This document shows, in pieces, positions 3,530-45,546 of a stretch of DNA of 64,000 nucleotides. Origin of the DNA: Gammaproteobacteria bacterium (GTDB lineage Bacteria; Pseudomonadota; Gammaproteobacteria; Burkholderiales; SHXO01); assembly GCA_041488255.1 (NCBI GenBank), contig JBGPOV010000002.1, positions 23,509-87,508 on the forward strand, given 5' to 3'. Every line of letters begins with the position of its first letter. The stretch's first letter is position 1. Below the pieces are notes generated by a model. It saw only the letters and a program-made list of their open reading frames with translations. It did not search any database and was not told the origin of the DNA. The position numbers and the translations under genes are program-made.

Positions 3530-4048
3530 CTAGTCACGCACCTGCCACTGCTCCTCGTCGTCGTCTTCTTCGTCTTCATCCTGGTCTTCGTCTTCTTCTT
3601 GCTCGCCGTCGTGATCTTCCTCGTCGTCGTCGCCGTTGCCGTCAACGGACGGCACCGAAAGCCATAGCTCATAGCCGTCCGGGTCGTTGAGAAAGAACTC
3701 GCGCGCCCCGTAACGGGCTGTCGCAAGCTCGGAGAGCGGGATTCCCGTCTTTTTCAGCCGCGCGTGCGTGGCGTCGATATCGTCGGGACGGATGTAGATG
3801 ACCCAGCTCTGTCCAATGGCCGGATTGAGGCGGATCTGTTGATCCGCGGAGAGCTGCTGCACCATCAGCTCGGCGCCGCCGGCTTTGAGCCAGCACCAAA
3901 TCATGCGTCCCTCCGCCTCGTAGGAGTCCAGCACTCTGAAACCGAAGAGCTCCGTGTAGAAGCGCACCGATCGGTCGATGTCGGACACCCCAAGGCTGGG
4001 GATCAACTTGGTCGCGCTGCCTCGTGAGGGCTTGGTTGGGTGCGACAT
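3530..4048 (-). CDS. VOC (glyoxalase/bleomycin-resistance/dioxygenase fold) family protein with a poly-acidic C-terminal tail
   Basis: LIPSLGVSDIDRSVRFYTELFGFRV ... YGAREFFLNDPDGYELWL is a typical VOC pattern. The last ~40 aa are almost only D/E (GDDDEEDHDGEQEEDEDQDEDEEDDDEE). Confidence 0.8.
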   Translation of the reverse strand: MSHPTKPSRGSATKLIPSLGVSDIDRSVRFYTELFGFRVLDSYEAEGRMIWCWLKAGGAELMVQQLSADQQIRLNPAIGQSWVIYIRPDDIDATHARLKKTGIPLSELATARYGAREFFLNDPDGYELWLSVPSVDGNGDDDEEDHDGEQEEDEDQDEDEEDDDEEQWQVRD

Positions 4049-13385: not shown

Positions 13386-14393
13386 ATGCCGACTTCCCTT
13401 CCCGACCGCATGCAAGTGGTGGAGATCTCCCGCCCCGGCGGGCCCGAAGTGTTGAAGCTTGTCACGCGCGCGCTGCCGCAGCCCAAGCCCGGCGAAGTGC
13501 TGATCCGCGTCGCCGCCGCCGGCGTGAACCGGCCCGACTGCATGCAGCGCGCCGGCGCATATGCACCACCGCCAGGTGCTTCCGACCTGCCTGGGCTCGA
13601 GGTCGGCGGCACAGTGGTGGCGCTCGGAGCAGGGGTGACACAGTGGAAAGAGGGCGACCAGGTGTGCGCGCTCACGCCCGGCGGCGGATATGCCCAATTC
13701 TGCGTCACCTCTGCCGGTCATTGCCTGCCGCCGCCCAAGGGTTGGAGCCTGACCCAAGCGGCGTCGCTGCCCGAGACCTTCTTCACCGTCTGGATCAACG
13801 TATTCGAGCGCGGCAGGCTGGCTGTCGGAGAAACTCTGCTGGTGCAGGGCGGCAGCAGCGGCATCGGCGTCAGCGCGATCCAGATGGCGCGCGCTTTGGG
13901 TCACCGCGTGTTCGTCACGGCCGGCAGCGCAGAGAAATGCGCAGCTTGCGAAAAGCTCGGGGCGGAACGCGCCATCAACTACCGCGCCGAGGATTTCGTC
14001 GAGGCCGTGAAACAGCTCACCGGCGGCAAGGGCGCGGATGTCATCTTGGATATGGTGGGGGGCGATTACGTCCCGCGCGAGCTGAAATGCCTGGCCACGG
14101 ACGGGCGCCTGTCTCTGATCGCCTTCCTGGGCGGTATCCGGACCACGCTCGACATCTCGGACATCCTGATGCGCCGACTGACGATCACTGGCTCGACACT
14201 GCGCCCGCGCACCGTGGAGTTCAAGACCGGGGTGGCGAACGCGCTGCGAGCTAAGGTATGGCCGCTGATCGACGCCGGGAAAATCCAGCCGGTAATCTAC
14301 AAGGTGTTCCCTTTGGCGCGAGCCTCCGCCGCACACGAACTGATCGAGTCCGGCGTTCACATCGGGAAGATCATCCTCGAGCCGGCGGGCTAG
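13386..14393 (+). CDS. qor: NAD(P)H:quinone oxidoreductase, zinc-independent MDR (PIG3/Qor family)
   Basis: GEVLIRVAAAGVNRPD and LVQGGSSGIGVSAIQMA. Start set to the ATG at 13386, preceded by GGAGGA with 5-nt spacing. Confidence 0.88.
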   Translation: MPTSLPDRMQVVEISRPGGPEVLKLVTRALPQPKPGEVLIRVAAAGVNRPDCMQRAGAYAPPPGASDLPGLEVGGTVVALGAGVTQWKEGDQVCALTPGGGYAQFCVTSAGHCLPPPKGWSLTQAASLPETFFTVWINVFERGRLAVGETLLVQGGSSGIGVSAIQMARALGHRVFVTAGSAEKCAACEKLGAERAINYRAEDFVEAVKQLTGGKGADVILDMVGGDYVPRELKCLATDGRLSLIAFLGGIRTTLDISDILMRRLTITGSTLRPRTVEFKTGVANALRAKVWPLIDAGKIQPVIYKVFPLARASAAHELIESGVHIGKIILEPAG

Positions 14394-22782: not shown

Positions 22783-23685
22783 ATGAACCGAACTCCCTAC
22801 CGTGGCCGCTTCGCGCCCACCCCATCGGGCCCGCTGCATTTCGGTTCTCTCGTGGCGGCCACTGGCAGCTACCTCGAGGCGAGGTCGCACGGCGGCGAGT
22901 GGCGCCTGCGCATCGATGATCTGGACCCGCCGCGTGTTGCGCCCGGCGCAGTCGCATCGATCCTGCGCTGCCTGGAGGCGCTCGGCTTCGAGTGGGACGG
23001 CCCGGTGCTGTACCAGAGCCGACGGCTGCCGGCCTATCACGCCGCACTGCATCGGCTGCGCCTGCTCGGCGCCGTCTACCCCTGCGCGTGCAGCCGCAAG
23101 GAGATTGCCGAGTCAGCACTGCCCGGTATCGAGGGCCCGATCTATCCAGGCGTCTGCCGCGCCGGCCTCCCACCGGATCGGCCCGCAAGGGCCCTGCGCC
23201 TGAGCGTCCAGGGCATGCGCGTCGAGTTCGACGATCGCCTGCTCGGTCGGCAGCGGCGCGATCTGGAGCGCGAGCCAGGAGACTTCATCCTCTACCGCGC
23301 GGACGGCGTGTATGCCTTCCACTTGGCCTCCGCTGTGGACGACGGTGAGCAAGGCATGACCGACATAGTTCGCGGCGCCGACCTGCTGGAAGCGAGCGCG
23401 CGCCAGCTCCAGTTGATGCGCTTGCTCGCTCTGCCCATACCCCGCTACGTCCATTTGCCGGTAGCCATCGATGGCAGCGGCGACAAGCTCTCCAAGCAGA
23501 CCAAGGCGGCACCGGTAGACCCCGCGCGTCCCCTGGCCGTTCTTCAGGCCGTGTTGCGCTTCCTCAACCAGGCGATGCCGGCCGGCTTCGAGAGCGCGAC
23601 GCTCCCGGAGTTCTGGCGCCAGGCCACCATGCATTGGGACCTCCAGCGCGTGGGCGCGCGCCTGCAGGCACCCGCACCGGGCTAG
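22783..23685 (+). CDS. gluQ: Glutamyl-Q tRNA(Asp) synthetase
   Basis: GRFAPTPSGPLHFGS (HIGH-like), RIDDLD, LSKQ (KMSKS-like). ~300 aa, a truncated GluRS paralog. Confidence 0.92.
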   Translation: MNRTPYRGRFAPTPSGPLHFGSLVAATGSYLEARSHGGEWRLRIDDLDPPRVAPGAVASILRCLEALGFEWDGPVLYQSRRLPAYHAALHRLRLLGAVYPCACSRKEIAESALPGIEGPIYPGVCRAGLPPDRPARALRLSVQGMRVEFDDRLLGRQRRDLEREPGDFILYRADGVYAFHLASAVDDGEQGMTDIVRGADLLEASARQLQLMRLLALPIPRYVHLPVAIDGSGDKLSKQTKAAPVDPARPLAVLQAVLRFLNQAMPAGFESATLPEFWRQATMHWDLQRVGARLQAPAPG

Positions 23686-25082: not shown

Positions 25083-25156
25083 GCGGCTCGGTCTGACCTT
25101 GCCCTCAAGAGAGAGGAGCCAGCCCGGGGCGTGTGAAGGCGGTAGGGCTGGCTAAA
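25083..25156. repeat. Island repeat, copy 1 (left end)
   Basis: GACCTT...GAGAGGAGCCAGCCCGG(25111-25127)...GTGAAGG CGGTAGGGCTGGC. GCCAGCCC and GGGCTGGC form an 8-bp inverted repeat. Starts ~20 nt after the stop of ORF 25175-25435. Confidence 0.7.
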
Positions 25157-25774: not shown

Positions 25775-26089
25775 GTGACACCGCCTATGGTGTCAGCCAA
25801 ACCCAGCATATATGATGAGGCTCTCGATCAGCTCAGAACCTCCCCAGCAGGGTTTCGATGCGCAGAGCTAGAAGCCCTTCTGGATAGCCTTGGCTTCAAA
25901 GTTCGACCAGGGAAGAAGGGGGGGCATCGAGTTTTTACACATGACGCTCTGGCGAAGGCGGGCTTTTGGGGATCAAGCTTCAACTGCGGACACCGGTCTA
26001 CTGCCAATGTGCGGCCCGCTTACGTTCTGAATATTGCACGGATCTGTGAGACCTACGAGGACGAGTTACGCCAGTTCCTGGGTGAGTGA
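25775..26089 (+). CDS. hicA: HicA-like toxin (YcfA/HicA family), N-terminally extended
   Basis: ELEALLDSLGFKVRPGKKGGHRVFTH ... NCGHRSTANVRPAYVLNIARI fits the HicA pattern (G-x-x-H, then a second H and helix). It lies directly upstream of, and overlaps, a clear HicB. Confidence 0.6.
   Translation: MTPPMVSAKPSIYDEALDQLRTSPAGFRCAELEALLDSLGFKVRPGKKGGHRVFTHDALAKAGFWGSSFNCGHRSTANVRPAYVLNIARICETYEDELRQFLGE
25776..25795. promoter_or_regulatory. Perfect 7-bp inverted repeat over the hicA start; candidate antitoxin operator
   Basis: TGACACC-GCCTAT-GGTGTCA spans both candidate start codons (GTG 25775, ATG 25787). Confidence 0.45.
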
Positions 26090-26736
26090 CAAGGATGTTT
26101 GATCCACACGCATACGCGATAACGGTCAGGAAGGATGAGGTGGACGGAGAGCAGTTGTTCCGAGCCACGATAGCCGAACTGCCAGACGTAGAGGAGTACG
26201 CGCCTACGTACCAGGAAGCCTACGAGTTCGCAATTGACGCCATCGAGACGCTCCAAGCCATGTACGAGGAAGAAGGGCGGTCTTTCCCCACCCCGAGCGA
26301 GGAAGAGCGGGAATTCAGCGGCAGGGTGACGCTGCGTGTTCCGAAGAGCGTGCACCGTCAGGCCGCAACAATCGCGCAGGCCGAGGGCGTCAGCCTCAAC
26401 CAGTGGCTAGTTTCTACCGTCGCGCTTGCCGTAGGGAATAGGTCGATGCTCGCAGGGGTCTCCACTACTACCGTTGGCCCCGCCTCCACTGTTGGTGCTA
26501 TTGCAGGGAGTAGTGGCGTGATCAACTTTACTGGCGGTGGCGGGTTCAACGTTACTATGAACAGCGCCGCGCTCTACTACTACCATCTCATGTATCCGTT
26601 CATCCCGATCGGCTCATTAGATTTCGGTGGAATGGGCCAGATCTGGGTCAATCCAGCACCAACCGCAGCGGTCCATGGGCAAGAAAAGGGTAAGAAGAAA
26701 CCGGAACTATGGGTGGTGCAGAAGCGCGCTGCGTAA
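26086..26736 (+). CDS. hicB: HicB-family antitoxin (HicB N-domain + RHH) fused to an unrecognised ~100-aa C-terminal domain
   Basis: FRATIAELPDVEEYAPTYQEAYEFAIDAIETL..EEGRSFPTP..FSGRVTLRVPKSVHRQAATIAQAEGVSLNQWLVSTVA is a canonical HicB plus ribbon-helix-helix. The ORF then continues for ~100 further codons (G/S/T-rich, then an aromatic patch YYYHLMYPFIP). Confidence 0.8.
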   Translation: MTRMFDPHAYAITVRKDEVDGEQLFRATIAELPDVEEYAPTYQEAYEFAIDAIETLQAMYEEEGRSFPTPSEEEREFSGRVTLRVPKSVHRQAATIAQAEGVSLNQWLVSTVALAVGNRSMLAGVSTTTVGPASTVGAIAGSSGVINFTGGGGFNVTMNSAALYYYHLMYPFIPIGSLDFGGMGQIWVNPAPTAAVHGQEKGKKKPELWVVQKRAA

Positions 26737-26742
26737 CGGGGA

Positions 26743-27075
26743 ATGCCCATGGCTGAAACCACGGCGATAACGTTTGACTTCAAAGAGGTTGCTGAGCTTC
26801 TCGTCAAGAAGCATGGCATCCACGACGGGCTGTGGACCATCTATGTGGAGTTCGGGATCGGGGCCGCCAACGTCGGTCCGTCGCCTCAAGAGCTGCGGCC
26901 TGCGGCCATTATCCCGGTGGTGAAATTCGGGATTCAGCGTGTCAACGAATCAACGAATCTTACGGTTGATGCCGCCGCTGTGAACCCGGCTCCTGGATTC
27001 AAGGCCAAACTCAAGGCGCCGGCGTCCGCGAAGAGGTCTAAGAGGCAGGCTGGAGAAAGTAAACCGAGCTCATGA
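26743..27075 (+). CDS. Hypothetical protein (110 aa) with basic tail
   Basis: Starts 7-13 nt after the hicB stop on the same strand. No recognisable motif. C-terminus is K/R/S-rich. Confidence 0.5.
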   Translation: MPMAETTAITFDFKEVAELLVKKHGIHDGLWTIYVEFGIGAANVGPSPQELRPAAIIPVVKFGIQRVNESTNLTVDAAAVNPAPGFKAKLKAPASAKRSKRQAGESKPSS

Positions 27076-27416
27076 ATAAGACGATGCTAAAAGCAGCAGC
27101 CGCTCTGCTTCGCCCGGTATCGTCTGATCCGCTGCCCATTCGTTGTGCTCATCTCTCTCCTCTCACAAGGACTCGGGCCGGGTGGGGACTGGCCGGCTAC
27201 GGCTGAGCGGGGCCTGAATCGCGCTCCAGATTCGAGGGGTGGCAGGGGCAAAACTCCAACCGGCAGAAAAAGTGTCAATGCCCTTTTTCGCGATCGCGCA
27301 AAAACAAAAGGAGGGCCTTGCCTGGACGCTGCTGGACGTTGGTCCCATAATGTCTGAGTCCACTACGCCGGTCGTGGTGGTCGATTAACTTCCCGTCATG
27401 CCGTAAAGTTAGATCC

Positions 27417-27992
27417 GTGCGCTCTCCCTGCGTAACCTCGCGTTCCACCTTCGAGCCGATCTCCTGCGCCGGTTCTTCATACACCGATGAACAGCGCAAG
27501 GAAGCGGCGATGCGTTATCTGCTCACAGGCAACGTAACCGAGGTCAGTTTGGCGATGGGTATCCCTCGCACCACCGTGCAGAGCTGGAAGTCACAGGAAT
27601 GGTGGAATGACCTTATCGTCGCGGTTCGTCAAGAACACAACGATGAGCTGGACGCGCGCATGACCCGGATTATGGACAAGACGTTCGCGGAGCTGGAGGA
27701 TCGGATCGAACATGGCGAGGCAACCGGGAAGTTGGGCGCGGATGGAAAGCCGATCAAGCTTCCTGTGAGGGTTCGTGATCTGAGTATCACCGGGGCGATC
27801 CTGTTCGACAAGCGGCAGTTGCTGCGAAGCCTGCCGACCGCCATCAAAGACGGGGCGGGGCTGTCTGCCATTGCGACGGAGCTGGTGCAGGCCTTCCAGT
27901 TGGTGGTACAGCGCGGTGAGAAGACCGTCGAGGGCACAGCTGAGCGGGTAACGGGTGGCGACAAGCCTGCTCCGCAGCTGAGACGGCGCTAG
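27417..27992 (+). CDS. HTH-domain protein resembling a small terminase subunit / IS3-type HTH
   Basis: YTDEQRKEAAMRYLLTGNVTEVSLAMGIPRTTVQSWKSQEWW is an HTH, followed by a helical region ending ILFDKRQLLRSLPT, as seen in TerS-like proteins. Start uncertain (GTG 27417 or ATG 27510). Confidence 0.45.
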   Translation: MRSPCVTSRSTFEPISCAGSSYTDEQRKEAAMRYLLTGNVTEVSLAMGIPRTTVQSWKSQEWWNDLIVAVRQEHNDELDARMTRIMDKTFAELEDRIEHGEATGKLGADGKPIKLPVRVRDLSITGAILFDKRQLLRSLPTAIKDGAGLSAIATELVQAFQLVVQRGEKTVEGTAERVTGGDKPAPQLRRR

Positions 27993-28429
27993 GAAATCGA
28001 GTCGTCGCTCGAGGTCATTGAAGACGCGGGGAGTCCATGAGGCGGCCACGCACCCTCGCGACTACCGCCTTCGCGAGCATGAATGCCTCTAGTTGGGCCC
28101 CGCCGCGCTTCTGCACAGTCTGAAGCAGCGTATCCATGAAGGTGCTGGACTGCTCCGAGCCGACCTTCATCAGCACGACGGCCGCCTGAAGGTGTGGATT
28201 GTCGGCGTTCTGCTCGCCGCCCGCCTTCAGCGCTTTGGTGACTGTCGGTGGTCCTTACATATGCCCCATGTGCAGCGCGTCTGGCCCGAGCCATCGCAAA
28301 GCTAATCGCTTGAAGGCCAGCACTTTGCGGCTCTGCGGCATGGGATATGCGTCCGCCATGGTTCGGCTCGAAAGCAACCTTAATGTCGTCCTCCCTCGGT
28401 ACTTCCTTCGATATGGGACAGGGGCAGCG

Positions 28430-29122
28430 ATGGCGAGTCTCATTCGGTTGATCACAGCGGCGACGTTCATCGCAGCGCTTTCTGTAGCGCGGGTGGAGGC
28501 GACGCCGATTACCTTCACCTTTGAGGGCACAGCCACCGGTCTCCTTGGGAATACACCTTTCACCGCAGCCCCCTTCACCATCACGGCTGACGCTGATACG
28601 ACGAACGTGGTGACGTCAGCTACTGGCGATGGCGCTACGGGAGGGGACTTCAGCCTCGATACAGATTCAGCGACGATCGACATCCCAGGCATTGGGACGC
28701 TAACATTCAGCACGGGGACACGGCTATTCGACGCCAGAGGCGTGACGGTCAACAGTCAGGGACCCTTAGACCTGTTGGGCTTCGCCAGGGCCGGGCTCGA
28801 TGGCATCGTTCTGATGGATTTCGCGGACCCTGTGTTTGCCACATACGACCTCTCGACGGCACTAGCTCCCCTGTTTATCGGCGACGCGATTAGTCTCAAT
28901 TCGATCGGTACGACCATGGGAAACCTCAGCTTCGATCAGGTCGTCGATGTCACGTTTACTGCAACGACCGACATGTGTGGTCATGGTCATCGTAAGAGGG
29001 ATGACTCCTGCGAGTCGTCGGTCCCCGAACCGGCCACGCTCGCTCTTCTCGGCCTCGCCTTCGCAGGGATAGGCTGGGCGAGACGGCGTGGTATTCGCAA
29101 AGCCATTCCAAGGGTCGGGTAG
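28430..29122 (+). CDS. PEP-CTERM sorting-domain secreted protein
   Basis: Signal peptide MASLIRLITAATFIAALSVARVEA. The C-terminus VPEPATLALLGLAFAGIGWARRR shows PEP motif + TM + Arg cluster. Track ORF trimmed to the ATG at 28430. Confidence 0.85.
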   Translation: MASLIRLITAATFIAALSVARVEATPITFTFEGTATGLLGNTPFTAAPFTITADADTTNVVTSATGDGATGGDFSLDTDSATIDIPGIGTLTFSTGTRLFDARGVTVNSQGPLDLLGFARAGLDGIVLMDFADPVFATYDLSTALAPLFIGDAISLNSIGTTMGNLSFDQVVDVTFTATTDMCGHGHRKRDDSCESSVPEPATLALLGLAFAGIGWARRRGIRKAIPRVG

Positions 29123-29188: not shown

Positions 29189-29542
29189 TCATGCGGGTGT
29201 CTCCTCATCCTGCTGCGCTGGCGCTTCGCGCTTGCGCTTGCGCGCCTGGTAGATGCTGAGTACGCTCTGCACCGTAATGCTGATGCCGCGCCTCTCCTGG
29301 CCTTCCTTGCCAGTCCAGCTAGTCAGCTTGCCCATGCCCGCCACAGAGACCGGGTCGCCCTTGTGTAGCTGCATAAGCGCCTTGACCGCTGCCGACTCGA
29401 AGGCAATCAGACTTGTCAGCATCGACTCCTCGCCGTCCAGCGGAACGCGCAGCAATGCCGTGCAGTAGAGCTTGCCGGCAGCGCTCGTGCGCGACTGCGG
29501 ATCCCCGGCGAGGCTGCCTTGGCACAAGACGCTCAGGCTCAT
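29189..29542 (-). CDS. SSB-like OB-fold protein with acidic tail
   Basis: CQGSLAGDPQSRTSAAGKLYCTALLRV...KGDPVSVAGMGKLTSW..GQERRGISITVQSV follows the SSB OB-fold pattern. ATGA overlap with the upstream gene. Track ORF trimmed. Confidence 0.6.
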   Translation of the reverse strand: MSLSVLCQGSLAGDPQSRTSAAGKLYCTALLRVPLDGEESMLTSLIAFESAAVKALMQLHKGDPVSVAGMGKLTSWTGKEGQERRGISITVQSVLSIYQARKRKREAPAQQDEETPA

Positions 29543-30117
29543 GTCTGCGTCTTCCTCTGCTCGCCCAGGCTCAGCCATTGATCGGCAGTCAGGAAGCGTT
29601 CTGGCTCTCGCACTGTGCAGTCCAGGCCAAGCTCGCGGGCCATCGCTCTGAAGCTCGTCAGGGCTCCGGACGGGTCTCTGGCAGCGGCCGTTCGCATCTC
29701 TGCAAGCTCCTCCTGTGAGCAGCCGTAGTGCCCGGCCACAAGCGGGATCAGCCGGGCCAGCTGGTCCAGCTCCGCGGGCGTGAGGTTGCGCTGCCCCGCC
29801 GGATCCGGTGCGTCCGGAAGCGGGACCAGCAGGCACCCGGGGTAGCGGCTCTCGAGGTCGGAGCGGGATATCGGAGGGGTGAACCACTTCTCGATCCGTT
29901 CCGACGGCTGGACGATCAGCCAGTGACCGGCGAGCTCGCCGAGGGTTGGGGTGTGGTCGGCTAGCGCCGCCAGCAGCTCCGGCTTGTGCGCTCGCAGCAT
30001 CGGGAGAAGATGCTCGACAGCTGGGCGTGGTCCCTGCGCCGTCAATTCGCCGTCTTCCAGGACCAGCTTGATACCGGCGGATTTGGCCTGTTCGATGATC
30101 TCCAAGACAGCGCTCAT
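29539..30117 (-). CDS. Hypothetical protein with TubC_N-like N-terminal domain
   Basis: EIIEQAKSAGIKLVLEDGELTAQGPRPAVEHLLPMLRAHKPELLAAL matches the TubC_N-type pattern by eye. ATGA overlap with the P-loop gene stop. Confidence 0.4.
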   Translation of the reverse strand: MSAVLEIIEQAKSAGIKLVLEDGELTAQGPRPAVEHLLPMLRAHKPELLAALADHTPTLGELAGHWLIVQPSERIEKWFTPPISRSDLESRYPGCLLVPLPDAPDPAGQRNLTPAELDQLARLIPLVAGHYGCSQEELAEMRTAAARDPSGALTSFRAMARELGLDCTVREPERFLTADQWLSLGEQRKTQT

Positions 30118-31754
30118 ATCGTCGCCTTTACCTCTTCCCCCCCACTTTGGGTATTTCTATCCGTCATGCCGTCAGGTGCCTTATCCAGCGGGGCTTTCAG
30201 GGGTTTTTCTATCCGTAAGGTGCCACCCTGCCTGACGGATGAAAAATTCCCGGAATCGCCCGTGGCTGTAGGGACCTGACGGACTGACGCTTGGAAAAGG
30301 GGAATCTGGGCGGAAGAAGGTATGTAGCGCACAAACGCTTCGGTAAACTGGTCGAGCTTGTACCCCTTCAAAGTACTTCCAGGGTCGCCTAGCCAGATAG
30401 TCTGCGAAACGATCTCGAAGGCGCGTAGTCGGTTGGCTAGTTGTCGCTGGGTCATCGCCTTCCCATGATGGAAAGTCGCCCAGGGGCGCTCAGGATCGGC
30501 ACACAGGGCCTCGATTAAATCCGCACTGGATAGCCGATCCTTGTCGCCGAACGCCTTGCGGATGTCGGCCAGCAGCTCGGTCCCGATCCCAGGGGCCTCG
30601 TTTTCTGCGCCAGAAAAGGCCTTGGCAGACTCAAGGGCCGCCTTGGTCCAATCCCCGCCAGCGGCCTCGGCGATCGCCAGCAGGGGCCACCAGTTGTCTG
30701 CAGCACGGTCATTTAACGTGTCAGCGATCTGCGGCTTGATCAGCCGGATGACCTGCGCGTTGTCGCGCGAGAACCTGACGCACTGGCGGCGCATCTGGTC
30801 CAGGTTCTTTGCATAGCGTAGTTTCTCCACCTTCTCGTTGGGCAGCCGGCGCCGCAGGTTGATAACGATGCATCGATCCTGCAACGTATCGGCGGGCTTG
30901 CCGATCATCGCCAGTACCTTCGGGCACCAGGTCGAGAAGCGCCTCGGCTCAAAGTCATCACCGCTGCATCGCATGACGAAGGCCAAATCTCTGGTGTGCC
31001 CAGAATTCATCACGCCGCGCAGCTCCTCGTTATCGGTCAAGAACGAATCCGCCTCGTCTACCAGCAGCGTCGGGCACCACTTCTCGATAGAGCGGTACAC
31101 GGCCGCCGGCGACACGTTGGATGCGGGCAGCGCGCGATAGGTTACGCGGGAAAGCCATGACAGCAAGGTCGTCTTGCCGCACCGCTTTTCTGGTGACAGC
31201 AGGGCCAGCAGAGGCGCGGTATCCACACTGTCTATCAAGTATGTGAACAGCACCCACAACGCCACGGTCTTGTCCGCGTGCTTGGGTAGCACGACAAAAC
31301 GGCGCACTGATGCTGCCAGGTCATCGAGTAGTTGCGCACCATCAACCTCGGCCCCCCAAGGCTCAATCTCCTGGAATATAGGCGTCTGCCCCACGCCATC
31401 AGCATCACCGCCGCGCTGCATCCTTACCGCGTCGTCCAGGGCACTGACGCGCACGCCTAGCTTTTCGGCTTCCGCCTCGCGTACCAGCTCATAGTCGAGC
31501 GGCGCCCGAGCCGCCAAGCCGGTGACGGCCTCCCTGATCTTGGGATCGCTCGACACAACCAGCGGATCGGCATCGCCTTGATGTCCCTTCACCCGTCGAA
31601 CAATGAGACCGGGAGCCTCGGCTGGCTTCTCGCCGGCCTGGCGCTTCCGGGCCCTCTCATCCAGAATTGACGCGCCTCTTGCCTCACCCTCTTGCCGTCG
31701 GCGTGACTGCTCAAAGATGCGCGGACCCTGCCCAACCTCAACGAAGTAAGCCAT
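30114..31754 (-). CDS. P-loop NTPase, DUF3631-like (putative replicative helicase/initiator of the island)
   Basis: Walker A SPEKRCGKTTLL and Walker B LLVDEADSF. Start set to the ATG at 31754 (GAGGAG 7 nt upstream), overlapping the upstream gene by 17 nt. Confidence 0.7.
   Translation of the reverse strand: MAYFVEVGQGPRIFEQSRRRQEGEARGASILDERARKRQAGEKPAEAPGLIVRRVKGHQGDADPLVVSSDPKIREAVTGLAARAPLDYELVREAEAEKLGVRVSALDDAVRMQRGGDADGVGQTPIFQEIEPWGAEVDGAQLLDDLAASVRRFVVLPKHADKTVALWVLFTYLIDSVDTAPLLALLSPEKRCGKTTLLSWLSRVTYRALPASNVSPAAVYRSIEKWCPTLLVDEADSFLTDNEELRGVMNSGHTRDLAFVMRCSGDDFEPRRFSTWCPKVLAMIGKPADTLQDRCIVINLRRRLPNEKVEKLRYAKNLDQMRRQCVRFSRDNAQVIRLIKPQIADTLNDRAADNWWPLLAIAEAAGGDWTKAALESAKAFSGAENEAPGIGTELLADIRKAFGDKDRLSSADLIEALCADPERPWATFHHGKAMTQRQLANRLRAFEIVSQTIWLGDPGSTLKGYKLDQFTEAFVRYIPSSAQIPLFQASVRQVPTATGDSGNFSSVRQGGTLRIEKPLKAPLDKAPDGMTDRNTQSGGEEVKATI
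30154..30290. repeat. Iteron-like repeat cluster (candidate ori) inside the 3' end of the P-loop gene
   Basis: TTTCTATCCGT at 30154-30164 and 30206-30216. CCGTCAGG at 30169-30176 on the plus strand, and as CCTGACGG at 30231-30238 and 30275-30282. Two copies are direct and two inverted. The repeats fall in different codon phases. Confidence 0.6.
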
Positions 31755-32166
31755 GAGCCAACTCCTCAGCATTGCGCAGACGCACGGCGGCCACACGTAG
31801 GCGGTCGCGGTCGATATCGCTCAAAGTGATCCCGTTGGCTAGGTTGTCGGCGGCAACGCTCGCGATCTCGACCTCGAACCCCACGCAACTCAAAACGGCG
31901 GCAGCATCGAAGGGACGACGCTCACGCGGCAGATGATCGCCGAGTGCGCGATCTGGGTAGAGATCCGACAGCCCCAAGCCGATCGCACTGAGCACATCCG
32001 TGACGCCACATCCGCCGAAGTCGTGGATCAGCACGCGCCCGTCCTCCAACTCACGCACCGCCAGGGATGGGTGCCGGTCTTCGTGTGCGGGACAGCGCGC
32101 GATCCAGCGGCGGGGTCCAACGGCACGCACGCCGGCGAGGCGGGAGATCAAGGCGTCTGCGCTCAT
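31738..32166 (-). CDS. Primase-helicase zinc-binding domain protein (stand-alone)
   Basis: WIARCPAHEDRHPSLAVRELEDGRVLIHDFGGCGVTDVLSAIGL is the Prim_Zn_Ribbon pattern. Confidence 0.75.
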   Translation of the reverse strand: MSADALISRLAGVRAVGPRRWIARCPAHEDRHPSLAVRELEDGRVLIHDFGGCGVTDVLSAIGLGLSDLYPDRALGDHLPRERRPFDAAAVLSCVGFEVEIASVAADNLANGITLSDIDRDRLRVAAVRLRNAEELAHGLLR

Positions 32167-32241: not shown

Positions 32242-32466
32242 TCACGAGCCCAACCGCGTGATCAATGCCCGGATATCCTCGACCCGCCATGCTGTCGTGC
32301 GCGGGCCGAGCTTTACCGGTTTGGGAAATCGCCCAGATCGAACGCCTTCCCACCAGGTAGACCGGCCGATTGGGATTAGCGCCGGAATGGGTGGATCCGC
32401 CTCGGGGTCGCCAACAATTTGCGGAAGCCTGACGTATCCGGTTTGCGGAAGAACAACGTTCAGCAT
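32242..32466 (-). CDS. alpA: AlpA-family phage/island transcriptional regulator (excisionase-like HTH)
   Basis: YVRLPQIV..LIPIGRSTWWEGVRSGRFPKPVKLGPRTTAWRVEDIRALI. Confidence 0.9.
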   Translation of the reverse strand: MLNVVLPQTGYVRLPQIVGDPEADPPIPALIPIGRSTWWEGVRSGRFPKPVKLGPRTTAWRVEDIRALITRLGS

Positions 32467-33297: not shown

Positions 33298-33385
33298 CCA
33301 GCGCTGACCTTCAGGGAGAGGAGCCAGCCCGGCCGGGTGAAGGGATCCCGGTATTCCCGCCGTCGCGGTAGGGCTCGCCAGTAAA
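33298..33385. repeat. Island repeat, copy 2 (internal, between ORF-C and ORF-D)
   Basis: GACCTT..GAGAGGAGCCAGCCCGG(33316-33332)..GGGTGAAGG + 23-nt insert + CGGTAGGGCTCGCC. Same orientation as copy 1. Starts ~10 nt after the ORF-C stop. Confidence 0.7.
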
Positions 33386-35001: not shown

Positions 35002-36264
35002 CTACACTGCCTTTCGCAGCGGTACGACCTTGCTGTCTCCTGCGGCGACCTGATCCAGGTAGTCCGCCCAGTGCTGCATCATCTGCCGGCGCTCCTCGAG
35101 ATACTCGGCCTGGTTGTAGGACGCGCGTGTCTTGTTGCGCTCCTTGTGGGCAAGCTGACGCTCGATCACGTCGGGGCGGAATGCCATTTCGTTGAGAATA
35201 GTCGATGCAGTCGCGCGGAAGCCGTGCGCCGAAAACTCGCCGTGATACCCCATGCGCTGGAGAACTCGGTTAATCGTCGTGACGCCGATGTAGAGCTTGG
35301 GTCGATGATTGTTCGGGAATAGCCACTTCTGCCCTCCCGTCAGAGTCTTCAGCTCGGTAAACAGGGCCACGGCTTGGCGAGAGAGTGGGACGACGTGGTC
35401 TTCGTCCATTTTCATTCGCTCCTTGGGTATCCGCCATAAAGCGCTTTTGAGGTCGATCTCCGCCCATTCCCCGCCCCGTAGCTCGATGGTTCGAACGAAC
35501 GTGAGCAACAGTAAGTGAACCGCGATCACCGTCGTGCGATGACCCCCGTACGCTGCCAGGCGCTTGAGGAATGTAGGTATCTCGGATTGACTGAGCGGCT
35601 GGTGGCTGTCGGTTCTCGGGACCTGGATTGCACCTTTGAGAGCGGCGGCCGGGTCCGCGTCAGCTCGAAGAGTGGAGACCGCGTAGCGGAAGATTGCTGA
35701 GCACCACTGACGCAGCATTAAAGCCATGGTCGCGGTGCGCTTCTCTACCTTTTGAAGAAGCACCAGCAGATGTGCCGCCGTTACCGACCGAATCGGTAGC
35801 GATCCAATATCCGGGAATGCGTCCGCCTCTAGTGCACGCAAGACCTTCTCCGCGTACCCGGCGCTCCAGTTCCCTTTGCGCTTCTCGTGCCACTCGCGCC
35901 CGATCGCTTCGAAGGTGTTTGCGCTTTCGGCAGTCCGCTTCAAGCGAGTAAGTTTGCGGGCGTGCGACGGATGGGTGCCTGACTTGACCAGAGCCCGCGC
36001 TTTGTCACGGTCAAGTCGAGCTTCGGAAAGGGTGAACACGCCACCCTGCCTGCGCAGTTCCGCTTCTGCGGCCGACTCATCTCTCGCCGGCGCTAGGTAT
36101 TCACCGAGAGCGAAAAGATTCTCCTTCCCGTCGATCCTATAGCGATAGCGCCACAGCTTCTTCCCGTTCGGTCGGACCTCTAGGTATAGGCCCTTCCCGT
36201 CCGTTATCTTCTGCGCCTTCTTGCTCTTTCGAGCATTCCGGACCGCGGTATCGGTGAGCGCCAT
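35002..36264 (-). CDS. int: Tyrosine recombinase/integrase, P4-type (DUF4102 N-domain)
   Basis: MALTDTAVRNAR...ITDGKGLYLEVRPNGKKLWRYRYRIDGKE, and the catalytic region HGFRATASTILNE...LAHKERNKTRASYNQAEY. Confidence 0.95.
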   Translation of the reverse strand: MALTDTAVRNARKSKKAQKITDGKGLYLEVRPNGKKLWRYRYRIDGKENLFALGEYLAPARDESAAEAELRRQGGVFTLSEARLDRDKARALVKSGTHPSHARKLTRLKRTAESANTFEAIGREWHEKRKGNWSAGYAEKVLRALEADAFPDIGSLPIRSVTAAHLLVLLQKVEKRTATMALMLRQWCSAIFRYAVSTLRADADPAAALKGAIQVPRTDSHQPLSQSEIPTFLKRLAAYGGHRTTVIAVHLLLLTFVRTIELRGGEWAEIDLKSALWRIPKERMKMDEDHVVPLSRQAVALFTELKTLTGGQKWLFPNNHRPKLYIGVTTINRVLQRMGYHGEFSAHGFRATASTILNEMAFRPDVIERQLAHKERNKTRASYNQAEYLEERRQMMQHWADYLDQVAAGDSKVVPLRKAV

Positions 36265-45356: not shown

Positions 45357-45546
45357 GGCGCCCCCTCCTTCGCTGTGCACGTGTACACGCCCTCCGGGTG
45401 TACACGCCCTCCGGTGACGATTTAGTTTAGCAGCTTAGCGGGAAATGGGAATACGCGAGCCCGTTCTGAGCCCGACCGAGCCCCGGGGAAAGCCGGATCG
45501 GCTGCCAGGGTCTAGCCAGTGGCCATGAGCTAGAGGTGAGCGCGTC

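Follow-up and report, generated by a model that had tools for sequence, protein, structure and literature searches.

The closest described relatives of the locus considered here are the RepAM elements of actinomycetes, pMEA300, pMEA100 and pSE211. The locus itself is an array of repeats lying inside the 3′ end of a DUF3631 gene, hereafter rep, on an integrase-bearing island of a bacterium assigned to Gammaproteobacteria, Burkholderiales, SHXO01 (GenBank assembly GCA_041488255.1, contig JBGPOV010000002.1). All coordinates refer to the stretch of this contig that was analysed, 64,000 nt from positions 23,509 to 87,508 of the forward strand, which is called the window. The DUF3631 family (Pfam PF12307) has been equated with RepAM (PMC3218068), and RepAM of pMEA300, its founding member, is a closer relative of the island protein than are the Reps of the staphylococcal and phage-inducible islands to which the original prediction had likened it. 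When purified, the pMEA300 protein is reported to bind multiple identical 8-bp repeats at the 3′ end of the sequence that encodes it (te Poele et al. 2006, as cited in PMC2440964), and the putative origin of pMEA300 has been placed at that end of repAM, where a stable hairpin is possible; similar hairpins are known from pMEA100, pSE211 and a Salinispora remnant (PMC2440964). The repAM gene is reported to be required for autonomous replication of the excised pMEA300 (PMC2440964). With regard to the mode of replication, a 2008 review favours rolling-circle for RepAM, yet notes that rolling-circle motifs are missing and that such a mode would be atypical in having several binding sites and for elements of this size (PMC2440964).

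In the pathogenicity islands of Staphylococcus aureus (SaPIs), Reps are self-loading helicase-initiators whose C-terminal winged-helix domain binds iterons arranged in two opposed sets just 3′ of rep. Origins of SaPIs and of other phage-inducible chromosomal islands (PICIs) contain 6–12 iterons of 5–6 bp, located after the stop codon and flanking an AT-rich melting region. The ori of phage lambda is the classical example of an origin translated within its initiator, with four iterons showing internal symmetry inside gene O, in a segment encoding a flexible linker. Satellite P4, which carries int and an AlpA/Vis-type regulator, encodes a primase-helicase, the alpha protein, in which a C-terminal winged-helix domain recognises octamer repeats; the ori and crr sites lie outside the alpha coding tail, in two separate clusters. 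For the IncU plasmid RA3, finally, oriV has been mapped to the 3′ end of repB (PMC9455977); the initiator family differs from that of the island.

Considered together with these systems, the array can be regarded with good confidence as the cognate site of the RepAM-type protein encoded by the very gene that bears it, and most likely as the origin from which that protein starts vegetative replication. From its sequence the feature would be a proteobacterial member of the already known RepAM origin type, because PF12307 is shared, the 3′-end repeats and the hairpin are alike, and the repeat cores are common to Streptomyces, Nonomuraea and proteobacterial loci. The layout of binding repeats at the 3′ end of an initiator gene is thus not new, with its 2006 precedent in the actinomycete RepAM elements. 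The six-site architecture across the family, the translated-origin tails and the two-residue match between protein wing and iteron, on the other hand, appear to be undescribed in the searchable DUF3631 literature.

Six units inside the 3′ end of rep

The array is formed by six copies of a ~15-nt unit, TTTCTATCCGTMAKG, the first three direct and the following three inverted. Their cores start at 30160, 30168 and 30212 on one arm and at 30232, 30276 and 30284 on the other, with spacings of 8-44-20-44-8 and an exact dyad centred near 30225. The units, each identified by direct reading and by a weight matrix, and the gene containing them are as follows.

30154–30168, plus strand: unit 1, TTTCTATCCGTCATG; left arm, outer doublet
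30162–30176, plus strand: unit 2, CGTCATGCCGTCAGG; overlaps unit 1, core 8 bp later
30206–30220, plus strand: unit 3, TTTCTATCCGTAAGG; left arm, inner, 44 bp after unit 2
30231–30245, minus strand: unit 4, TTTTCATCCGTCAGG (minus-strand reading); right arm, inner
30275–30289, minus strand: unit 5, CGTCAGTCCGTCAGG (minus-strand reading); 44 bp from unit 4
30283–30297, minus strand: unit 6, TTTCCAAGCGTCAGT (minus-strand reading); degenerate outer partner, 8 bp from unit 5
30154–30297, no strand: dyad array of six iteron-like units; putative origin and predicted binding site of the RepAM-like protein
30114–31796, minus strand: rep, RepAM-like initiator/helicase gene, 560 codons from a GTG at 31796; Pfam PF12307
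30324–30587, minus strand: predicted winged-helix DNA-binding domain, ~aa 404–491, from the secondary structure of an AlphaFold model
30117–30323, minus strand: C-terminal tail, codons 492–560, which reads through the array and has no predicted structure

The strings quoted in the original prediction are all present where it had placed them, as a direct reading confirms: TTTCTATCCGT occurs at 30154 and 30206, inside a 16-nt direct repeat, GGGTWTTTCTATCCGT (15/16 matches), at 30149 and 30201, whilst CCGTCAGG occurs on the plus strand at 30169 and inverted at 30231 and 30275. Its description of two direct and two inverted copies is right as to the repeats but not as to their number, which is three and three once the 8-bp-offset partners beside the outer units are included (GCCGTCAGG at 30168 and CTGACGCT at 30284). 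An imperfect inverted repeat of 30 nt (30154–30183/30216–30245) runs through the same region. The copies also lie, as had been pointed out, in different codon phases (TDRN versus LRIEK; TCC-GTC-AGG versus gTC-CGT-CAG). Since the gene is on the minus strand, the array falls within codons ~500–548 of the 560-codon open reading frame (ORF); the Pfam DUF3631 domain ends at residue 491, and the array is therefore wholly contained in the last ~65 codons. Public records call the protein as 546 aa, with its start at 31754.

When scored with a weight matrix built from them, the six units reach 16–22.5 bits, against at most 10.9 in the rest of the 64 kb. The degenerate word TCCGTMAKG has five matches in 64 kb where 2.0 are expected, a window-wide count without significance by itself; four of the five lie inside 124 bp, and the signal resides in this clustering and in the comparative data described below. 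A scan for repeat density that makes no use of a motif finds 10 shared 8-mer pairs in a 140-bp window at 30151, the mean for the whole window being 1.05. A handful of windows, at about three places (near 3.5 kb, near 45.3 kb and, for 7-mers, near 13.4 kb), are denser than the array, and two of these places overlap ordinary tandem repeats. The first (3558–3628) is a tandem array of 18-bp period in a TCGTCTTC-rich stretch, the second (45381–45414) a perfect 17-bp duplication and the third (near 13421) a 7-mer-rich window; all three are unrelated to the island.

One further near-copy deserves mention. At 27393–27409 the plus strand reads CCGTCATGCCGTAAAGT, a 15/17 copy of the outer iteron doublet with ATCCGTG 8 nt further on, ~115 bp upstream of an ORF resembling helix-turn-helix (HTH) and TerS proteins (called start 27510). 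Its candidacy as a second binding site, similar to crr of P4, was rejected: its weight-matrix score of 10.8 equals that of background matches (9–10.9), and the idea is weakened again by the homologous loci, which contain almost no extra copies within ±4 kb. For these two reasons the near-copy may be due to chance, as the original prediction had already supposed for the 12-mer it noticed there.

Homologous loci and the constraint on DNA

The original prediction held that it would fall if homologous proteins conserved the C-terminal peptide whilst their DNA lacked the repeats. Tail motifs (S.RH.P, ASVT....LRI and CDGVTDRN) are indeed conserved in homologues at 44–57% identity, which is half of that outcome, and for this reason the DNA of 80 homologous loci from a species-level genome collection was examined. 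This DNA turned out to carry the repeats too, and the peptides, as shown further below, shadow the DNA word; on this count the prediction is not refuted. About 55 homologous loci, spread over many phyla, have this array design at the corresponding position, as does an integrative plasmid of Streptomyces.

Nearly all loci carry, within the ~200 bp that follow the invariant F..RY motif, 3–9 exact copies of a lineage-specific 7–8-mer in both orientations. The units follow the general form (TAT)CCG-YN-AC(A) in two opposed sets, with the cores CCGTAAC, CCGCAAC, CCGCTAC, CCGTCAC, CCGTGAC and CGGTTAC and, more rarely, CGAAACA and TGGAACA. Orientation is fixed: 56 of 59 loci have their first unit in the TCCG..AC sense on the coding strand, and in equally many (56/59) the last one is inverse. 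The orders met most often are aabbb, aab and aaabbb, a spacing of 8-43-18-43-8 recurs, and the array of the window is built on exactly this plan. The repeats are concentrated in the tails: the top 8-mer has 220 copies in 23 kb of tails versus 25 in 502 kb of flanks, the tails of 60 loci have a median of 17 shared 8-mer pairs against a background of 1, and the tail is the most repeat-dense 200-bp window of its ~9-kb locus in 33 of 60 cases, a motif-independent result obtained with proteins of 41–52% identity from many phyla.

The Streptomyces case, found by a protein search of plasmids, is a 13.5-kb circular element with the order int-xis-DUF3631-PrimPol-FtsK, in which 11 copies of TCCGCTAC/GTAGCGGA extend across the DUF3631 stop codon. 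Triplets at 9-bp spacing stand at both ends of this array, and the first triplet alone is coding. A Nonomuraea locus uses AGCCGTAACA, and the cores of both actinomycete loci are identical to those of several proteobacterial ones.

These data also bear on the idea that the array is an operator only, by which the protein would autoregulate its own gene and the coupled downstream genes whilst the origin lies elsewhere. A regulatory role has been raised in review to account for the unusual position of the repeats (PMC2440964), and it would suit both the ATGA coupling of the downstream gene, here and in many loci, and the missing AT-rich unwinding element beside the array. Yet the top 8-mer is nearly absent within ±4 kb, so no second cluster is left to serve as an origin; most of the array falls beyond the ORFs in members with short tails and in those from actinomycetes, and its six-unit opposed design matches that of helicase-initiator origins. 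An operator without origin function is consequently considered unlikely, although a regulatory role could co-exist with that of an origin.

That conservation is at the level of DNA had been argued in the original prediction from the codon phases, and the homologous loci extend the argument. SVT, encoded by TCNGTNAC (TCN GTN ACN), and VTD, encoded by GTNACNGA (GTN ACN GAY), derive from a single DNA word that is read as such in one case and as the reverse complement in the other, and the peptide pairs SVT/VTD, SAT/VAD, SGT/VP. and TET/VSV are all related in this manner, both members switching together by lineage. Units occur in all three frames (76/34/12 in orientation a and 84/29/6 in orientation b), and the two units of a doublet, being 8 bp apart, can never share a frame. 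Moreover, 26 units lie past the stop codon in short-tail members, and in four independent loci of Desulfobulbus type the protein ends after the first unit while the rest of the array is kept downstream. The conserved tail peptides are thus translation shadows of the DNA word and its reverse complement. The reverse-complement pairs, the units in three frames and beyond stops and the tail predicted to be unstructured show that the constraint acts on DNA and not on protein.

The reverse could be imagined, with the repeats a by-product of short linear peptide motifs, namely SVT, VTD, LRI and CDGVTD, which a disordered tail would carry, for example, for partner binding or modification. Such motifs would agree with the recognisable conservation of the tail peptides at the identities given above, with the two preferred frames (a1 and b0) that hold most units and with an ORF that stays open through the array in most members. 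They would not account for the peptide pairs, the use of three frames, the units beyond stops or the Desulfobulbus-type loci; furthermore, unit sequence covaries with the wing of the winged helix and with nothing in the tail, which is predicted to be unstructured. This explanation is scarcely credible.

The arrays share a pronounced capacity to fold. In the window, the 161-nt array stretch forms a single long DNA hairpin with ΔG values of −38.8 and −40.4 kcal/mol and z-scores of −5.3 and −6.5 for the two strands. Among 57 arrays the median hairpin z-score is −5.7, with 47 below −3, as compared with −0.13 and one of 57 for controls taken from each gene 700 bp further upstream. A long hairpin that is stable on either strand and lies just upstream of a coupled start codon might be suspected of acting in the mRNA, as a terminator, an attenuator or a switch of translational coupling, rather than as a DNA site. 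Pairing, however, needs complementary arms and not identical tandem 8-mers within each arm; no U-tract follows, and it is a DNA-binding wing with which the units covary. When the arrays are folded as RNA, 46 of 57 loci have the more stable structure on the antisense strand (p 2.7e-5), whereas selection on an mRNA would have favoured the sense strand. A function of the dyad in RNA is accordingly judged most improbable. The higher antisense stability may itself reflect C/A-type mismatches on the coding strand.

The predicted helicase-initiator and its repeats

The protein encoded by rep matches DUF3631 over profile positions 2–182 of 182 (E 1.2e-42, 146.6 bits versus a cutoff of 24) and contains a Walker A motif SPEKRCGKT and a Walker B motif LLVDEAD. 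It has at least 3,996 homologues, many of them fused to Toprim, Prim-Pol or zf-CHC2 primase domains, and the nearest one beyond identical copies of the island shows 58% identity among the matches listed. A search of the PDB with its sequence and profile returned no relative, and PHROGs and NCBIfam gave no match for it or for the 192-aa protein encoded next to it. An AlphaFold model based on 49 sequences (mean predicted local distance difference test score, pLDDT, 78.5) consists of a helical N-terminal part, a P-loop core, a C-terminal winged-helix-like module (in 546-aa numbering helices 436–444 and 467–477, strands 451–454 and 461–466) and a disordered tail, residues 481–546 having pLDDT <50 and no secondary structure. 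The best Foldseek match of this model in the PDB is the SaPI1 Rep-DNA complex (7pds, E 2.7e-7), followed by MCM subunits, AAV Rep40, ASFV PrimPol, NrS-1 and poxvirus D5, all of them hexameric AAA+ replicative helicases. On the basis of the model, the protein is thus predicted to act as a self-loading helicase-initiator, an AAA+ (SF3/MCM-like) hexamer whose C-terminal part bears a winged-helix domain.

This predicted fold has a direct bearing on the rolling-circle mechanism proposed for pMEA300 by te Poele and colleagues, in which the array is a double-strand origin and the RepAM-type protein, bound to the repeats, causes the hairpin to extrude and cuts one strand at a site within an unpaired loop. 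A pC194-like CTTGAT-type motif in the unpaired parts of the actinomycete hairpins speaks for this mechanism (PMC2440964), as do the strong hairpin potential conserved here and the SSB-like gene that follows in the operon. RepAM nevertheless lacks all rolling-circle Rep motifs, and its multiple sites and element sizes are atypical (PMC2440964). The fold predicted for the island protein is that of an AAA+ replicative helicase nearest to SaPI Rep, MCM and SF3 proteins rather than of the HUH type; the very frequent primase fusions of homologues fit primed replication from a melted origin, and no exact CTTGAT is present at 30140–30300 in a direct reading, which was not a systematic search for a conserved nick motif. 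Rolling-circle replication from the array is for these reasons regarded as improbable.

A connection between protein and repeats emerges from the covariation of the two. Out of 295 alignment columns, residue 476 has the highest mutual information with unit position 8 (T or C), and the adjacent residue 475 has the highest with unit position 9, both values exceeding all 500 label permutations. These residues belong to the second wing strand, directly before an invariant KG[YF]. CCG-CA-AC pairs with TPKG and CCG-TA-AC with TAKG, whilst T at unit position 9 pairs with V at residue 475 (V.KG) in 11 of 11 cases. The classes so defined are not clades, since identity in the ATPase part is 0.60 both within and between them, and nearest neighbours at 83–84% identity differ in unit and wing alike. 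In the window, T475 and L476 are encoded at 30369–30374 (PGSTLKGY, verified), and the protein combines STLKGY with the unit TCCG-TC-AGG. The evidence that this covariation provides for a reading of the repeats by the winged helix is indirect, but it is specific. The interpretation of the array as an iteron-type origin at the 3′ end of rep, advanced in the original prediction, thus gains support from the family-wide arrays, the covariation and the predicted fold.

A mechanism can be proposed on these grounds. The wing x-[T/V]-[A/P/..]-K-G-[Y/F] (aa 474–479) would read the central dinucleotide of each ~13–15-bp unit, whose form is TAT-CCG-YN-AC in general and TCCG-TC-AGG in the island. On an imperfect palindrome of ~150 bp, with doublet-single in one arm and single-doublet in the other, winged-helix domains would be placed in two opposed sets of three, so that helicase rings could assemble head to head on the array and open the duplex, possibly helped by the extrusion of a cruciform, an aid suggested because the centre is not AT-rich. 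The last ~65 codons would then be a "translated origin", a tail without function at the protein level, in which the ORF is kept open across the array to let translation proceed as far as the ATGA overlap, where the next gene starts. Origin firing, a bidirectional (theta-type) mode, the stoichiometry and the rationale of translational coupling are inferred steps of this scheme. Its extension to the DUF3631/RepAM family in several phyla, with a tail that is purely a translated origin, a six-site dyad that matches the six winged-helix domains of a hexamer and a two-residue wing code that sets the CCG-YN-AC word, is put forward tentatively, as a generalisation that could well hold but may equally prove too broad.

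When compared with the described systems, the island is closest to the RepAM elements pMEA300, pMEA100 and pSE211, with which it has in common PF12307, an initiator gene whose 3′ end contains ~8-bp repeats, direct and inverted, a long hairpin and an integrase. It differs from them in lacking their FtsK/Tra conjugation module, its own layout being satellite-like with int-alpA, and in its proteobacterial-type host context; its protein has just ~33–36% identity to the actinomycete proteins found. Its ORF runs through the whole array, whereas the Streptomyces element codes the first triplet only, and its unit ends in AGG or ATG instead of ACC or ACA; lastly, the RepAM literature has favoured rolling-circle whilst the predicted fold of the island protein points to a helicase-initiator. 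The analogy with SaPIs and PICIs drawn in the original prediction is a fair one functionally and gains support from the predicted fold. SaPI1 Rep is the best structural match, opposed iteron sets stand at the 3′ end of rep, a C-terminal winged helix is predicted, as in the SaPI Rep/PriRep proteins, and the order int...alpA...rep, unidirectional as far as the weak AlpA-like match allows, may recall the Gram-negative PICIs. On the other hand, sequence similarity to SaPI Rep is not detectable in the PDB search, and the island units are ~13–15 bp long and lie inside the ORF, with no AT-rich region between the two opposed sets. The likeness to lambda is limited to an origin inside the coding sequence of the initiator: O is not a helicase but recruits DnaB via P, its iterons lie in mid-gene by an AT-rich region, and the protein families are unrelated. 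As for P4 alpha, no match at the level of the sequence family was found here.

Several observations weigh against the array being the origin of a RepAM-type helicase-initiator. No AT-rich unwinding element was found at the centre or flanks of the array, be it here or averaged over 53 loci, and the GC content of the arrays is merely 3–6 points below the locus mean, unlike in SaPI and E. coli PICI origins; relative to a classical iteron theta origin, iterons are present but a discrete AT-rich block is not, and DnaA boxes were not searched for. The units of the window end in AGG or ATG where almost all other lineages have ACA or ACC, and unit 6 is degenerate. The covariation statistics are not formally phylogeny-aware, and the Foldseek TM-scores are modest (0.35–0.41) for a structure that is itself a prediction. 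Binding is known for one distant actinomycete relative only, whose origin is called "putative" even there (PMC2440964). Finally, the island protein lacks the fused primase domain of many homologues, and the 142-aa ORF upstream resembles no more of a primase than its N-terminus, for which reason autonomous replication may need a helper or host primase, or may have been lost.

Several consequences follow if the array is the origin of its RepAM-type protein. A 144-bp stretch receives a predicted cis-acting role, as origin and initiator binding site, and an odd low-complexity protein tail would be explained as a by-product of selection at the DNA level. DUF3631 proteins are very common in integrative elements, and their annotation still reads "unknown function" or "putative primase/helicase"; once the embedded origin is recognised, it would allow origins and incompatibility or specificity groups to be found from sequence alone, and it serves as a warning that the C-terminal "conserved motifs" of these proteins are probably not protein motifs. 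The pairing of wing and unit offers a small, testable rule of protein-DNA recognition. Were this wing code true, it would account for the avoidance of cross-talk among related elements, and origin specificity could be both predicted and re-programmed; likewise, the replication mode of RepAM would be settled as helicase-initiated (theta) over rolling-circle.

The island around rep

The neighbourhood of rep contains the following further features.

29189–29542, minus strand: SSB-like gene, 117 aa; weak SSB matches
29539–30117, minus strand: 192-aa gene; ATGA overlap of its start with the rep stop, similar to a TubC_N docking domain over the N-terminal ~50 aa
31738–32166, minus strand: primase-N-terminus-like ORF, 142 aa; phrog_6088, E 3.5e-10, residues 6–72 versus positions 7–73 of 772
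32242–32466, minus strand: AlpA-like regulator, 74 aa; PF05930, weak match
33308–33378, minus strand: int-alpA RNA motif; Rfam RF02996, 49.4 bits versus a gathering score of 35.8
35002–36264, minus strand: tyrosine integrase; Pfam Arm-DNA-bind_3, Phage_int_M and Phage_integrase

The TubC_N match of the 192-aa protein is weak (Pfam, E 1e-4), and 14 proteins encoded downstream of rep in homologous loci match its N-terminus by BLASTP. A ~50-aa N-terminal module of this kind recurs downstream of DUF3631 genes in many phyla (homologous loci L020, L027, L052, L059 and others), with C-terminal parts that vary. A downstream start that overlaps the rep stop, at an offset of −4 or −1, is found in about 30 of 63 homologous loci. 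Among the homologues, the recurring endings EVEI, ERF and VEVF, each followed directly by the stop (L004–L083), coincide with a GGAG-type ribosome-binding site and an ATGA/TGATG overlap, and this terminal "motif" looks to be DNA-driven as well.

Directly upstream of rep, the 142-aa ORF, which is similar to no more than the first ~70 residues of a phage DNA primase family, overlaps the start of the longest rep ORF. A primase catalytic domain was not detected in the island, which may have kept a remnant of a primase and rely on a different one. The int-alpA RNA motif lies between ORFs of 301 and 233 aa, upstream of the weak AlpA-like gene, and four unassigned ORFs also precede rep on the same strand, before the integrase. 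The integrase, the int-alpA RNA, the weak AlpA-like ORF, the primase-like fragment and rep are all encoded on the minus strand over ~12 kb. Near the far end of the island, 25100–25127 is a 28-nt direct copy (86%) of part of the int-alpA motif, for which Rfam gave no match at E ≤1 as a second int-alpA RNA. The ORF at 27417–27992 is weakly HTH/Terminase_5-like (TerS-like), and both its matches and those of the AlpA-like protein are below curated cutoffs. Neither a tRNA scan of the window for an att site, which returned none, nor a direct-repeat search for island ends and att sites gave anything convincing.

The same island is present, unchanged, on three public contigs. Its cargo, at 26086–27075 (plus strand) and 28199–29122 (plus strand), includes a HicB-family antitoxin and a protein with a PEP-CTERM sorting signal. 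An ORF of 110 aa at 26743–27075, after HicB (108 aa as called on L001), is possibly the HicA partner, and the PEP-CTERM protein is an unusual cargo for a small integrative element.

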